Part shown: one piece after another, positions 24,434 through 30,785 of the stretch
How positions within the stretch are numbered: the stretch's first letter is position 1
Layout: every line of letters begins with the position of its first letter
From: Escherichia coli
GTDB taxonomy: Bacteria; Pseudomonadota; Gammaproteobacteria; Enterobacterales; Enterobacteriaceae
DNA: 64,000 bases
Direction: 5' to 3' (one strand)
Assembly (NCBI RefSeq): GCF_003790525.1
Contig: NZ_CP033635.1
Made by a program: the position numbers and the translations under genes
Notes under the pieces: generated by a model
Seen by the model: the letters and a program-made list of their open reading frames with translations, nothing else
Told to the model about the DNA's origin: nothing
Databases searched by the model: none

Positions 24434-26530
24434 TTAGCGGAAATTGACGCTACGGTCGCTGGTCATGTCATACAACTGGAACTTACGCCCAAGTTGCTGA
24501 CCACCGTCACGCGTCAGCGGCGTCCAGCCAATTGCCGCACGACTGCGTGTTGGGCCAGACGAGAAGAGATCCAGCGGTACAGAGACATATACGCCTTTGG
24601 TGAAGTCCCCTTCGCCGTACTCCTCTTTCGAAACATTGGTGATCGTGGCATAGCCACCCACCACCACGCCGCTATCAAAGCGTTTGGCGATCTCCAGCGT
24701 GCCGCCTTTATCCCCTGCCAGATACTGCCCGATGCTGGCTTTCACTAACACATCCTGAGCGAAAGATGGCGTCCAGTAGGCGGTCAGATGTCCGGTTTTC
24801 ACGCTGTAATCGGTGAATTTCATCATATCTTTTGCGCTACGCCAGTCGCGCTGTTTAACGTAGTTGGCATCCAGACCAAACGCCCAGTTGCTGTCCAGCG
24901 GGCGATACAACACTTCAGCCCCCACGCCGCCAAACATGGTTTCGAGATAACCTCCGTAGACCTGACCGTAGAAGCCGTTGCCCAGATGCTGGAAGTAGTT
25001 GGCTTGCAGGTTATTCACATAGACATCATTCTGCACATACTCGCGCACATGGGTACGAACGCGCGGTAAGTGCGAGTCCTGCGGTGGATTGGTGTAGTTA
25101 AACTTGTCGTAGTTGTTGGCAAGGTTAGCAAACAGGCTGCCGGTGGTGAGCAGATGCTCCGTCAGCCACAAATCCGCCGTTCCCATCACGCCCAGCTGAT
25201 ACATGTAAAAGTTTTCCGGGCCACCGACCGACTGGTTCAGCACCGGATCGATATGGAAATCAAAGCGTGATTTGTCAATATACCAGCCCTGCTCGGTGGA
25301 CTTCGGAACCACTGGCTCGACGCGTTTTTGCGCCAGCTTCGTTTCGTGGCCCAACGGCTCTCCGGCGAGATGATTTTTCAGGCTGGCGACATCGGTTTCC
25401 GTCGTCACCTGCGGCATGTTAAGGCGATTTTCCGTAATGCGGATCGTTTTGATCCCATCCGGCAGATCGTTCATCACGATCCGATTAGCACGGATGATCC
25501 CTTCGCGCGAATCACGATATTTCACCTGCTCGCCGGTAACATACAGCGTATCGCCTTTCGCCTGGATCTGCGGATCGGCCAGTCCGGCGTTGTATTTCAA
25601 CAGCGTTAACTGATTCGCCACCACCGAATGCTGCAAAATGGCATCCTGTGGCTGCGGTTGATATTGCGGGCGGGCGTTATCGTTATACGAAGGACGCAGA
25701 TCGTTAAAGTTGGTGCGCAGCGTGACGCCAAACATAAAGGTGTTGCCACGTTCATAGCTAAGGTTAACGTCGGCCCAATCGGTAACGCGATAAATCGCCC
25801 CGACGTTAAACTTACTTTTTTGCTCCAGCTTCCCGGCAAAATCCTGCTGATAATTATTGCCTTCATACTCCAGTTTCAGGCGCAGCGGTTGCCAGGGCGT
25901 CTGGTATTCCACGCCGCCAAACAGTGAGGCCGGGCCGTGGAACATCTGGCTACCGTCGATAGATCCCGCCTGTTTATAGCTGTTATCGCGATAGCAATAT
26001 TTATCACTGGCTGAACAGAGCGGATTTTTCACATTACCGCTGGTGCCCAGATATCCCCAGCCCAGGCCGAGCGTAAAATCGAACGGCCCCCAGGCTTTGC
26101 TGGCGACAAGATATTCCGCATCAAACAGCCCCGTACCGCCGATATCCCGCGCACCAACCGCCACTTGCGGCAGCCAATAACTCTCTTCCCACAAACGCAG
26201 TTTGAGATCGAAGGCTTTATCTTTATACGTTTGATCACCAGAGAACGCTTCGACGCTGCTGTACTGCCGGGTGCGCACGTCGGTGTAGCGCAGCGTTGTT
26301 TCCAGCCACGGGAAGAGTTGCACTGAAGCTGAGTAATAACGGTACTGATCGTTATCGCGATAGTTCAGGCTCAACTCCCCTTCCCGCGCCATGCGCGCGG
26401 TGGGCGTTTGTAATAATCCTACGCCACCGAAATCCGACTGCGACGGACCAATGGGCGCAGGATATGTTTCGCCGTAGCAAGCTGTGCTAATGCCCAGCGC
26501 CAGTAAGCTAAGCAGATGTCTTTTTTTCAT
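24434..26530 (-). CDS. yjbH: outer-membrane beta-barrel lipoprotein of the yjbEFGH exopolysaccharide operon (GfcD-like)
   Basis: 698 aa with signal peptide and lipobox-like STAC; last gene of a four-gene minus-strand cluster. Confidence 0.9.
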
Positions 26531-27267
26531 TATTGAGGTATCCGCTGCGTCAGAGTCTGAAGAATGTCGGCGTTAAGGGCATCAGACGTCTCACTCCAGA
26601 CGGAGTCCGCGAGGCCAACATAAATAATGCTGCCGGGCATCGGCTCTACGTGACGCTTGTTCCAGTAAGCCACCGGCGCTTTTTGCGTGCGTCCGTCCGG
26701 GTAAACCACCCACGCGTAGCTGCGATCCGCACCGCTAAGCAGGTTCTGCCCGGAGAGATAGCTCGCCACGTCGCGACCTGGAGTGAATGGCTGCTTGCCA
26801 GGACGGCTTATAAGCCCGAATAACGTGACCGTGGACGGCGGTGGTCCGACCCACAGCGTGTAGTTGCCCTGCAACGGCGGGTTACCGCGTTCGGCAACGC
26901 GGACGATATCAGGATCAAGATTGATTTTTTGCCTGCCCGTCACTTTCAACGCCTGAATTTGCTGGCGTAAGGCGTTAATTGCGGCGGCATCGTCGGCGCT
27001 GGAATCTGCAGCCAGTTCTGCCAGCCGTGTCAGCAACGCCTGCTGCTGACGCAATGCTGCCGCCGTGGCCAGCTCTTCGCTAATCACCGCACCAGGCCAC
27101 CAGCTGTTTGCCAGCTGCGGTTGGCCTACCAGATCGATTAAATGCTCTGCGCCCGTCAGCGTTTTAGCCTCACTGCTGCCATTGCTGAACACCTTGACGG
27201 TTCCCGCCGCGAAGACTGATGACGCCCCCGCACTCAAAAGCAACGCGACAATAGTTTGTTTAATCAT
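26530..27267 (-). CDS. yjbG: periplasmic protein YjbG (GfcC-like)
   Basis: 245 aa with signal peptide; its stop overlaps the yjbH start by 1 nt. Confidence 0.85.
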
Positions 27268-27932
27268 TGTTTTGCCGCCTTGATGAGGGTGGTTTTCACC
27301 GGGAAATAATCCGCGCCGAGATACTGTTCCGACTGGCGAATTTGCCCTTCGCTGTCGATCCAGTAGCGGTTATGCCAGCGCGCCTGGTCGGTGGAGACTT
27401 CTTCGTCCAGCATGCGAACCGGGGTTTCATCGCTGCCGACCTTGACGGTATCGGTGCCATCCCATTTGAAGACTGAGCGTGCGGTGGCGTAGCGTACCTG
27501 CTGGTACTCGGTCCAGCCCATCGTGCGCGTCCAGGTTGCACCATCAACAATTTGTGCGGGTTTAATCAGCGGGTCGGCAGCAAGGTTATTCACTTCAATC
27601 AGGTTGTCGCCGCCAAGCAAAGTCTTCACCAGACGACCATGTTGTGTGACAAGGGTGGCCTGATCCTGAGTGACCCATTTTTGTTGTCCGTCTTCAGCGA
27701 AGGCCAGCACCACAAATAACTGCGGCCCGCCATTAAGCTGCATGTACTGGCTGGCGTAGGGCATATTTTGAATATCATCGTCCGTCAGTTGTACGCCTGG
27801 CGTACCGAACAGACTGTCCCACAGTGAATTGCCCAGCTCTTTAGTCGTGGCTGAACAGGCCTGTAATAGCAGGCAGATAAGAATGAGTGCAGGTCGCTTC
27901 ACGACTCTTCTCCAGAGGGGCAGAATAACCAC
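27264..27932 (-). CDS. yjbF: lipoprotein YjbF (GfcB-like)
   Basis: Lipobox LLQAC; overlaps the yjbG start by 4 nt (ATGA); exact start uncertain. Confidence 0.8.
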   Translation of the reverse strand: MVILPLWRRVVKRPALILICLLLQACSATTKELGNSLWDSLFGTPGVQLTDDDIQNMPYASQYMQLNGGPQLFVVLAFAEDGQQKWVTQDQATLVTQHGRLVKTLLGGDNLIEVNNLAADPLIKPAQIVDGATWTRTMGWTEYQQVRYATARSVFKWDGTDTVKVGSDETPVRMLDEEVSTDQARWHNRYWIDSEGQIRQSEQYLGADYFPVKTTLIKAAKQ

Positions 27933-28015
27933 ACCGGAGTGTGGTTATGGTAAATCCCTTCATACTTCAAGCCACAGATGCGATGACTCGAATTATTTTG
28001 GGGATACATACTTTA

Positions 28016-28258
28016 TTACTGGGTACTGGTGGTCGTGGTTGTGGTGGTCCCGGTATTAGAACCATCACCGCCACCGGTTGCCGCGAGCGCGACACCCACC
28101 GCCGAGCTTACGGTGCTGACGCTGGTCGCGGAGGAACTCCCCGCCGAAACCGACGTTGCTGCCGACCCTGCCGCTTCGCCCACCTGTACAGGTGCAGCCC
28201 ACGCAGAAGTCGCCGCAAGCGCAGATATGGCAAAAATGCCATACAGAACTTTTTTCAT
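28016..28258 (-). CDS. yjbE: Thr/Ala/Ser-rich secreted protein YjbE (GfcA-like)
   Basis: 80 aa with signal peptide and a poly-Thr tail [12 protein letters not shown]. Confidence 0.8.
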
Positions 28259-28566
28259 AACAATTTCCCTTCATTGAATGAATGGAGATTTACCCAAAAA
28301 CATTTCGGGCGGGATCGAGTATACACAACTAAAGCATGCGAATTACGGCGCGGGTAATTAGTGATGGGGTTTTAGGATAATTGGAATGAATATCAAATAT
28401 AAGCTTCAGATTATATATAAATAACACTAAAAATCATAAGCTTAAAATAAAAATAAAAGTAATTAATCTGCGTATTTTCCGAAATCAATCACGATTAAAA
28501 ATCTATTTTAGGATTAACCTCACGGTATGATTTCCGTTAAATCACAGACAAGGGGATTTATCTGAT

Positions 28567-28596
28567 AAAAAATGCCGACATAACGTCGGCATTTTT
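28567..28596. terminator. bidirectional rho-independent terminator downstream of pgi
   Basis: Hairpin tgccgac-ataa-cgtcggca flanked by an A-run on one side and a T-run on the other. Confidence 0.65.
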
Positions 28597-28611
28597 ATTA
28601 GGGTTATTTAA

Positions 28612-30261
28612 TTAACCGCGCCACGCTTTATAGCGGTTAATCAGACCATTGGTCGAGCTATCGTGGCTGCTGATTTCTTTGTCATCTTTCAGCTCTGGCA
28701 GAATACGGTTCGCCAGTTGTTTACCCAGCTCCACGCCCCACTGGTCGAAGGTGAAGATGTTCAGGATCACGCCCTGAGTAAAGATTTTGTGCTCATACAG
28801 CGCAATCAACGCACCCAGGCTGAACGGAGTGATTTCACGCAGCAGGATGGAGTTGGTCGGGCGGTTACCTTCGAACACTTTGAACGGCACCACGTAGTCA
28901 AGCGTTGCCGGATCTTTACCCTGATCGCGATATTCCTGCTCAACCACTTCGCGGGATTTACCAAACGCCAGCGCTTCGGTCTGAGCGAAGAAGTTAGACA
29001 GCAGTTTCTGGTGATGATCAGAGAGCGGGTTATGGGTGATAGCCGGAGCGATGAAATCGCACGGTACCATTTTGGTTCCCTGGTGGATCAGCTGGTAGAA
29101 CGCGTGCTGACCGTTAGTACCTGGTTCACCCCAGATAATCGGGCCAGTCTGGTAATCCACAACGTTACCGTTACGGTCAACATACTTACCGTTGGACTCC
29201 ATATTGCCCTGCTGGAAGTACGCCGCGAAACGGTGCATATACTGGTCATACGGCAGAATCGCTTCAGTTTCCGCACCAAAGAAATTGTTGTACCAGATGC
29301 CAATCAGCGCCAGCAAGACAGGCAGGTTTTTCTCGGCAGGCGTGGTGGAGAAATGCTTGTCCATCGCGTGTGCGCCAGAAAGCAGTTCAACGAAGTTATC
29401 AAAGCCGATGGAGAGAACAATCGACAGGCCAATCGCTGACCACAAAGAGTAACGACCGCCGACCCAGTCCCAGAATTCGAACATGTTGGCAGTATCAATA
29501 CCAAACTCGCCAACGGCTTTGGCATTGGTGGAAAGCGCCGCAAAGTGTTTCGCAACGTGTTTCTCATCACCTGCCGCTTTCAGGAACCAGTCACGCGCGC
29601 TATGGGCGTTGGTCATGGTTTCCTGAGTGGTGAAGGTTTTAGATGCTACCAGGAACAGCGTGGTTTCCGGGTTTACTTTTTTCAGCACTTCCGCGATGTG
29701 AGTCCCATCGACGTTAGAAACAAAGTGCATGTTCAGGTGGTTTTTGTACGGACGCAGTGCTTCGGTCACCATGTACGGGCCGAGGTCAGAACCACCGATC
29801 CCGATGTTCACTACGTCAGTGATTGCTTTGCCGGTATAGCCTTTCCACTCACCGGAAATAATCGCTTCCGAGAAGGTTTTCATCTTCTCCAGCACCGCGT
29901 TGACTTCCGGCATAACATCTTTGCCATCAACCAGAATCGGGGTATTGCTACGGTTACGCAGCGCTACGTGCAGTACGGCGCGGTTTTCAGTGCGGTTGAT
30001 CTTCTCGCCAGAGAACATCGACTTAATCGCGCCCGCCAGATCGCACTCTTTCGCCAGATCTTGTAATTTCGCCAGCGTCTCTTCAGTGATGCGGTTTTTG
30101 GAGTAATCCACCAGCATCTGATCGTCGAAGGTTACGGAGAACTTAGAAAAACGATCGCCGTCTTTAGCAAAAAGATCGGCGATCGTAACGTCTTTCATTT
30201 CATCGAAGTGTTTCTGTAGTGCCTGCCAGGCAGCGGTCTGCGTTGGATTGATGTTTTTCAT
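28612..30261 (-). CDS. pgi: glucose-6-phosphate isomerase
   Basis: Trimmed to [19 protein letters not shown] (549 aa); recognised as Pgi. Confidence 0.97.
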
Positions 30262-30480: not shown

Positions 30481-30785
30481 TACTACCTGCGCTAGCGCAG
30501 GCCAGAAGAGGCGCGTTGCCCAAGTAACGGTGTTGGAGGAGCCAGTCCTGTGATAACACCTGAGGGGGTGCATCGCCGAGGTGATTGAACGGCTGGCCAC
30601 GTTCATCATCGGCTACAGGGGCTGAATCCCCTGGGTTGTCACCAGAAGCGTTCGCAGTCGGGCGTTTCGCAAGTGGTGGAGCACTTCTGGGTGAAAATAG
30701 TAGCGAAGTATCGCTCTGCGCCCACCCGTCTTCCGCTCTTCCCTTGTGCCAAGGCTGAAAATGGATCCCCTGACACGAGGTAGTT
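30481..30785 (+). ncRNA. lysC 5' leader containing a lysine riboswitch (L-box)
   Basis: About 300-nt leader between a TTGACA/TATAAA-like promoter (about 30445-30476) and the lysC ATG; contains conserved L-box strings AGAGGCGC, GGAGGA, CCGAGGUGAUUGAAC. Confidence 0.75.

Follow-up and report, generated by a model that had tools for sequence, protein, structure and literature searches.

We conclude that positions 28259 to 28566 of the window (the whole stretch of DNA analysed, 64,000 nucleotides) probably serve the yjbEFGH operon, which is read on the − strand, as its cis-regulatory region and 5′ leader. The earlier note had taken this interval for regulatory DNA of yjbEFGH, and the present results bear this out: conserved blocks recur at fixed distances across approximately 13 enterobacterial genera, they are retained with yjbE in two genomes in which pgi lies approximately 2 kb away, and the operon is reported to be under RcsA-RcsB control. 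A control region of an Rcs-regulated operon is of an ordinary, known kind, and the general picture of Rcs-regulated exopolysaccharide promoters is unchanged. The additions made here are a map of coordinates, a spacing constraint related to helical phase, a predicted two-hairpin leader, and a case against STnc430 as an RNA. No description of the layout of the yjbE control region was found in the literature searched.

The yjbEFGH operon was reportedly defined by Ferrieres in 2007. It is an exopolysaccharide operon that is activated by RcsA-RcsB (PMC5651002, PMC5461412). Expression of yjbE increases upon overexpression of RcsB and decreases in an rcsB mutant, and the gene serves to report Rcs activation (PMC6941253). 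In expression components, yjbE groups with rcsA, wza and the wca genes, and its osmotic induction has been reported. Expression of yjbE serves widely as a read-out of Rcs envelope-stress signalling, and the map described below gives testable coordinates for the RcsB-type sites, a length-constrained spacer, the core promoter and the two leader hairpins.

Sequence comparison revealed that the window matches E. coli SMS-3-5 with 100% identity. The genes at the locus were as follows, based on the RefSeq annotation of the identical record and, for the yjb genes, also on the list of open reading frames:

28612–30261, − strand: pgi
28016–28258, − strand: yjbE, 80 amino acids, first gene of yjbEFGH
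27264–27902, − strand: yjbF
26530–27267, − strand: yjbG
ending at 26530, − strand: yjbH

The interval 28259–28566 extends exactly from the start codon of yjbE to the hairpin 3′ of pgi. The description of this DNA in the earlier note, as some 300 bp of AT-rich non-coding sequence between the yjbE start and the pgi terminator, was correct. Its GC content is 0.318 as compared to a mean of 0.517 for the 64-kb window, and the stretch 28371–28470, with a GC content of 0.18, is the minimum among the 100-bp stretches of the window. The AT-richness is real and locally exceptional. The longest open reading frame within the interval encodes 32 amino acids and none is conserved; small genes in the spacer were therefore rejected. 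A 138-amino-acid reading frame on the + strand (27941–28357) is antisense to yjbE and was taken as a by-product of yjbE composition.

Two further features that had been pointed out at this locus fared less well. The genes had been described as tightly coupled, which holds for yjbF and yjbG, overlapping by 4 nt (27264–27267), and for yjbG and yjbH, overlapping by 1 nt (26530), but not for yjbE and yjbF, which are 113 bp apart with a conserved hairpin in the gap. Short direct repeats had been offered as a regulatory signature. The quoted pair, 28399–28411 and 28436–28448, comprises 13 nt at 85% identity. The interval contains seven exact 8-mer repeat pairs versus 5.4 expected at the same composition (P = 0.32), and its longest exact repeat is 9 nt versus a chance mean of 9.1. 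As the repeats are not in excess over composition, are degraded in K-12 and are missing in other genera, we rejected them as a feature.

The comparative set was assembled by searching with the C-terminal half of Pgi, using one genome per species, which yielded 80 loci. Salmonella was not among these, and Citrobacter was the nearest proxy. yjbE, yjbF and yjbG follow pgi in 17 Enterobacteriaceae loci, in several Erwiniaceae and in other Enterobacterales. Fifteen Enterobacteriaceae spacers were aligned with those of SMS-3-5 and a K-12-like strain (n = 17; approximately 13 enterobacterial genera), and each base of the alignment was scored for identity to E. coli. Conservation was confined to discrete blocks separated by AT-rich sequence that has drifted. 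In the sense of yjbE, the order of the blocks is the pgi terminator, sites D, C and B, an IHF-like site, the spacer, site A, the −10 element, and a leader with two hairpins:

28568–28596, − strand: probable intrinsic terminator of pgi, a 12-bp perfect inverted repeat (arms 28568–28579 and 28585–28596)
28552–28565, − strand: site D, putative RcsB/RcsAB box, sense TCAGATAAATCCCC, 7 of 8 specified positions
28509–28522, − strand: site C, best putative RcsAB box, sense TGAGGTTAATCCTA, followed by AAAT
28469–28484, + strand: site B, inverted putative half-site, yjbE sense TTTCGGAAAATACGCA (TTTCGGA), with the TNRGA half at 28478–28482
28432–28444, + strand: IHF-like site, AATCATAAGCTTA in E. coli, 8 of 9 specified positions of the motif
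28387–28468, no strand: AT-rich spacer between sites B and A, conserved in length and composition and not in sequence
28370–28386, − strand: site A, proximal putative half-site, sense TTCCAATTATCCTAAAA (...ATCCTAAAA)
28341–28346, − strand: −35 position, GTAATT, a poor match (2 of 6)
28316–28330, − strand: putative core promoter block TTGTGTATACTCGAT, all 15 bases invariant in the 17 sequences
28318–28323, − strand: −10-like element TATACT, invariant
28292–28310, − strand: leader hairpin 1 (GCCCGAAAUGUUUUUGGGU), at the predicted 5′ end of the yjbE mRNA
28266–28286, − strand: leader hairpin 2 (UCC-A-UUCAU...AUGAA-G-GGA), predicted to pair with the Shine-Dalgarno sequence

Two loci, L011 and L015, separate the neighbouring genes. 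In both, approximately 2 kb lies between pgi and yjbE and the pgi terminator is different, while yjbE keeps beside it sites A, B and C and the IHF-like site as well as the promoter and leader. This retention argues that the conserved blocks belong to yjbE rather than to pgi or to a terminator-dependent antisense RNA. Beyond the aligned set, Pantoea and Erwinia have matches to 7–8 of the 8 RcsB-box positions downstream of their own pgi terminators, together with a TATACT or TATAAT whose distance from a GCGCC... hairpin is unchanged.

The four RcsB-type sites were evaluated against published motifs. The RcsB box is TN(G/A)GAN4TC(T/C)NA (PMC7913699), and the RcsAB box is TaAGaatatTCctA, with six conserved letters (PMC4325325). 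A 2026 preprint gives TCCTAAAAT as the canonical RcsB half-site and includes yjbE as a candidate target for a motif that has this half in common. Site C matches the RcsB box at 7 of 8 positions in all 17 sequences; none of the six conserved RcsAB-box letters changes, and the N and R positions vary freely. Site D matches at no fewer than 7 of 8 positions, in the same alignment column, in 15 of the 17 sequences. Sites C and D are the only places in the alignment with at least 7 of 8 positions matched in most sequences, and what varies in them is confined to degenerate positions. Sites A and B match only as half-sites. At site B, T28478, C28479 and A28482–28484 are invariant, and the full RcsB box reaches 7 of 8 in only three genera. 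In a single genome, we estimate that approximately one box match of 7 of 8 is expected per 353 bp of AT-rich DNA and two were observed. Thus, the case for RcsB boxes rests on conservation across genera, as the matches in any one genome are near chance.

The distances between the blocks were also conserved. These were measured from the first T of TATACT in 18 genomes:

Site A half-site TC(C/T)NAAA to −10: 54 bp for 14 of the 18 genomes, 53 bp for one
Site A to −10 in two Citrobacter: 42–43 bp, one helical turn less
Site B to site A: 105–108 bp in 15 genomes and 94–95 bp in two
Site C to site B: 40 bp for 15 of the 18 genomes, 39 bp for one, 29 bp for two
Site D to site C: 43–44 bp in the 11 genomes in which both sites were correctly assigned
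IHF-like site to −10: 119–121 bp in 11 of 18 genomes

The site A half-site was not detected in one of the 18 genomes. Aside from jitter of 1–3 bp, the larger changes in length between sites are steps of approximately 11 bp. Outside the IHF-like site, identity of the spacer to E. coli is 0.25–0.5 per 10-bp block, and its AT-richness is kept in all genera while its letters drift. A spacer that keeps its length while its sequence drifts is what is expected if distal and proximal proteins face one another across bent or looped DNA. At approximately 190–250 bp upstream of the predicted start, sites C and D are rather distant to activate it directly.

For IHF, we take the consensus to be WATCAANNNNTTR. 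The best match to it scores 7–9 of 9 in all 18 genomes, with the limitation that this is a low-information motif for which approximately one chance match is expected per interval. Within the E. coli site, C28435/A28436 and T28442/T28443 vary little or not at all. In the literature searched, no report linking IHF to yjbE was found.

All bases of the putative core promoter block are invariant, and its −35 position is poor, as expected for an activator-dependent promoter. The standard promoter scan made no call at the TATACT promoter. Based on the position of the −10 element, transcription would start at approximately 28310, that is, at the edge of hairpin 1. In this hairpin, the 17 sequences give 119 cells, of which 117 pair when read in the yjbE sense, 24 of them as G-U, and one pair shifts from U-A to C-G via U-G. 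On the other strand only 93 of 119 cells pair, since the G-U pairs would be A-C mismatches. A shuffle control (31 of 500) was suggestive at most; the one-sided direction of wobble is the stronger argument and suggests that hairpin 1 is an RNA element on the yjbE strand.

Hairpin 2 is predicted to pair the Shine-Dalgarno sequence AAGGGA (28266–28271) with UCCAUUC. Its sequence is invariant in the 17 Enterobacteriaceae, which neither supports nor opposes the pairing. The hairpin is present in the E. coli fold, and three Pantoea leaders are predicted to form one of the same shape from other letters. The Rfam search returned no family that matches the yjbE leader, and a second copy of the promoter and leader, for example at the paralogous gfc operon, was not found: in 5420 E. 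coli genomes they occur at one place per genome. As predicted from sequence, the conserved two-hairpin leader would be new with the present analysis. The stem-loop at the predicted 5′ end resembles the stabilising 5′ hairpins of the ompA type, and hairpin 2, which has an internal mismatch and pairs the ribosome-binding site, resembles RNA thermometers and translational operators. It differs from the ompA leader and thermometer systems in that the yjbE leader matches no Rfam family.

At the opposite end of the interval, the pgi hairpin has a GCCGAC/GTCGGC core with A/T extensions and appears in the folds of both strands. Its letters differ among genera and the pairing is always kept, so that the stem covaries. 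In the pgi sense, 13 of 14 other genera have a U tract with 5–7 T in 8, the extracts being of 110 nt and the fourteenth tract lying only partly inside; on the opposite strand the tract ranges from 2 to 7 T in 8. In E. coli, our own script found a 6-bp GC core and, on the strand in the sense of pgi, T at 6 of 8 positions. A simple terminator scan of the region called none, in our view because the A/T arms pair with each other and so take up the T run. The hairpin being palindromic, it could terminate transcription in both directions.

The conserved blocks and distances, together with the motif matches and the pairing specific to one strand, lead us to infer the following mode of action. Transcription of pgi would stop at the hairpin 28568–28596, downstream of which lies the array of D, C and the inverted site B. 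Phosphorylated RcsB, with RcsA, would bind the distal boxes and site A. The AT-rich spacer, of approximately ten helical turns, may bend through IHF, through an inherent flexibility, or through the two together; the distal complex would then share a face with the promoter, and σ70 RNA polymerase would be recruited. At rest, the spacer would be a plausible target of H-NS silencing. The transcript would begin near 28310, directly at hairpin 1, such that its 5′ end may be protected, and hairpin 2, by covering the ribosome-binding site, may limit translation of yjbE. The most specific form of this proposal is a helically phase-locked nucleoprotein switch that tolerates only whole-turn insertions and deletions, combined with translational gating by hairpin 2 and with STnc430 not being an RNA. 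We advance this combination tentatively, as a serious possibility that falls short of being probable.

The proposed arrangement may be compared with that of known promoters. It shares with the wza/cps, rcsA and Erwinia ams promoters a match to the 14-bp box, dependence on RcsA-RcsB, exopolysaccharide genes and a weak −35 element. It differs from them in that yjbE has putative boxes or half-sites D, C, B and A spread over approximately 200 bp, and in the helical phasing and long AT-rich spacer. Similarly, the IHF-like site midway and the conserved distances are reminiscent of IHF-assisted activation at σ54 and some σ70 promoters. The −10 element at yjbE is of the σ70 type, unlike that of the IHF-assisted σ54 promoters, and the putative IHF site matches at 8 of 9 positions in E. 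coli.

An alternative to Rcs control through multiple sites is that the interval is generic AT-rich, curved DNA silenced by H-NS, with regulation chiefly through relief of silencing. The interval includes the lowest-GC 100 bp of the 64 kb, and the spacer keeps its AT content as its sequence drifts. Moreover, according to the literature, rcsA, another promoter of the Rcs regulon, is silenced by H-NS. The earlier note had taken the interval as typical of curved, H-NS-bound DNA. Using a rough wedge model, we found peaks of predicted bend at 28373 and 28425 that reach the 99th percentile of positions; the predicted curvature is nevertheless modest, as at least 12 stronger peaks occur elsewhere in the window, coding DNA included. 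With the H-NS-silenced promoters of rcsA, proV and bgl, yjbE shares extreme AT content upstream of a stress-induced promoter; it differs in its modest predicted curvature and in that its conserved elements are discrete and site-like. This last point counts against the silencing explanation, since generic AT-rich DNA would not keep base-specific blocks at fixed spacing. In addition, the literature searched contained no report of H-NS at yjbE. As the principal explanation, silencing is somewhat doubtful. It is compatible with Rcs control through multiple sites and partly overlaps with it, neither excluding the other; indeed, silencing of the spacer by H-NS with counter-silencing by RcsAB is plausible. 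A different alternative retains the Rcs sites and assigns B, C and D to a second, upstream yjbE promoter inside the AT-rich spacer instead of to the distant TATACT. The E. coli candidate, on the − strand, consists of a −35 element ATGATT, a 16-bp gap and a −10 element TATAAT at 28410–28415; in SMS-3-5, the TATAAT is perfect and the −35 matches at 3 of 6 positions. According to the literature, sites of the RcsB homodimer are usually just upstream of the −35 element, and one paper states that there are two promoters at the yjbE locus. However, neither K-12 nor most other genera had the TATAAT at the corresponding position, the spacer is conserved in length and not in sequence, and site B is still approximately 45 bp from the candidate −35 element. 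Based on these considerations, we regard the second promoter as unlikely.

A further alternative concerns the + strand, on which the region matches an RNA family. Specifically, the Rfam family RF02053 (STnc430) matches at 28455–28603, antisense to pgi and yjbE, with 84.5 bits versus a gathering score of 47; in 11 other genera, the match scores 56–123 bits. It covers sites B, C and D and the pgi terminator. Were STnc430 a genuine small RNA, it would be transcribed from a promoter at 28421–28448, start at approximately 28455, be approximately 150 nt in length and end at the bidirectional hairpin. Indeed, the only promoter-like site that the standard scan returned, a σ70-like ATAACA-16-TAAAAT at 28421–28448 on the + strand, is located just upstream of the match and has the right spacing to its start. 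On this strand the hairpin is followed by AUUUUUAUUA, and the E. coli sequence folds with z = −3.6. The reverse strand, however, folds at least as well (z = −4.6), and the −10-like TAnAAT of the + promoter (28443–28448) was present in just 7 of 17 sequences even with relaxed thresholds. Beyond that site, the relaxed scans across genera were uninformative, yielding many AT-rich matches on both strands. Several genera have lost the U tract of the + strand, with 2–3 T in 8 in Kluyvera and Enterobacter cloacae, and in L011 and L015 sites B and C persist by yjbE with the pgi terminator approximately 2 kb away.

The Rfam helices themselves were evaluated by laying them on an alignment of the 12 matches above threshold, using column shuffles as control. 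In the helices of the body, 77.0% of cells paired versus 77.4% in the shuffles, with a covariation score of 0.142 versus 0.156; thus, there is neither covariation nor an excess of pairing. The outer helix was 55% paired, and the variable column of the central helix was unpaired in 8 of 12 sequences. RNAalifold found no consensus structure for this alignment. Within the match, only the terminator stem covaries. The central helix consists of site B pairing with site C, which vary independently within {A,C}{G,A}. This is exactly the degeneracy of TN(G/A)GA, and the conserved letters of the match as a whole track TN(G/A)GA...TC(T/C)NA, independently at each site.

The origin of the family is in keeping with this. 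STnc430 was listed for Salmonella as a class V candidate, that is, an earlier computational prediction, between pgi and yjbE in the orientation -> <- -> (Sittka et al. 2008, Table S3), and the match described here is above threshold at the same position and in the same antisense orientation. That study recorded 0 reads for the candidate, in the control library as well as in the Hfq library, and marked it "np" (not probed) for Northern analysis (Sittka et al. 2008). No RNA gene is annotated at pgi/yjbE in K-12 MG1655. The family is the record of a prediction rather than of a demonstrated RNA. Given the lack of covariation in 12 genera, the inconstant U tract on the + strand, the retention of B and C where the terminator is distant and the zero reads in the source study, the match more likely reflects DNA-level conservation, its columns behaving as protein sites followed by the palindromic pgi terminator. 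A functional small RNA at this position appears very unlikely; weak antisense transcription of the + strand is possible. STnc430 matches are thus probably not evidence of a small RNA, which matters for the automated annotation of enterobacterial genomes. Other Rfam matches were below threshold and were rejected: AgrB on the terminator palindrome (26.6 and 22.9 bits versus 40), isrH (20.4 versus 45) and STnc430 itself on the reverse strand (34.2 versus 47).

Site B also coincides with a mutation reported in K-12. In a line selected with phage T7, a T→C change at 4,235,682 (pgi/yjbE, +275/−224) had a frequency of 1.0 (PMC10044975). This position corresponds to 28482 of the window, the first T of the TCGGA half-site of site B, in an invariant column. 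The fixed change, an indirect hint that site B may be bound, could also be a hitch-hiker. In other lines of the same T7 selection, yjbH was mutated (PMC10044975).

The following features lie in and around the yjbE region of the window:

27925-27948, - strand, hairpin between yjbE and yjbF
27941-28357, + strand, ORF of 138 aa, antisense to the whole of yjbE and extending into its leader
30498-30694, + strand, lysine riboswitch upstream of lysC, from the annotation of the identical RefSeq record

The yjbE-yjbF intergenic hairpin has the form UAACCACAC-loop-GUGUGGUUA. Its stem was invariant in the window and in 24 of the 24 yjb loci examined, which represented Enterobacteriaceae, Erwiniaceae, and Acerihabitans. 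The loop was UUCG in the 17 other Enterobacteriaceae loci versus UCCG in E. coli. The U-rich run 3' of the hairpin was strong in Erwiniaceae, but weak in E. coli. This hairpin probably sets the yjbE:yjbFGH ratio, acting as a 3' stabilizer or a partial terminator. The 138-aa ORF on the opposite strand was taken to be a by-product of the coding composition of yjbE, which is GC-rich and rich in Gly, Ala, Ser, and Thr codons, rather than a gene.

Insertions of approximately 60 to 90 nt occurred in the yjbE leader of a Pseudocitrobacter locus (L006, 4120-4210) and a Pantoea locus (L033, 4262-4320). Both fall between hairpin 1 and hairpin 2 of the leader, leaving each hairpin whole. In two further loci, L011 (3790-5840) and L015 (3790-6370), approximately 2 kb of other sequence separated pgi from the yjbE regulatory region; in L011, this stretch included repeated GGGAGAGGG-type palindromes.

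Strains of E. coli differed directly after pgi. K-12-like and O157 strains carried approximately 145 extra bp of REP/BIME-type palindromes directly 3' of the pgi stop codon. SMS-3-5 lacked this insertion, as seen by comparing positions 1640-1757 of a K-12-like strain (L002) with 28597-28611 of the window. Beside the insertion, the final 18 bp of pgi appear to be present a second time in degenerate form.

The lysine riboswitch upstream of lysC was also found by Rfam in related loci, and is an already known, expected element. Finally, three other 200-bp stretches of the window were very AT-rich, with a GC content equal to or below that of the yjbE upstream region:

15051-15250, very AT-rich, GC 0.235
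14341-14540, very AT-rich, GC 0.25
4651-4850, very AT-rich, GC 0.27
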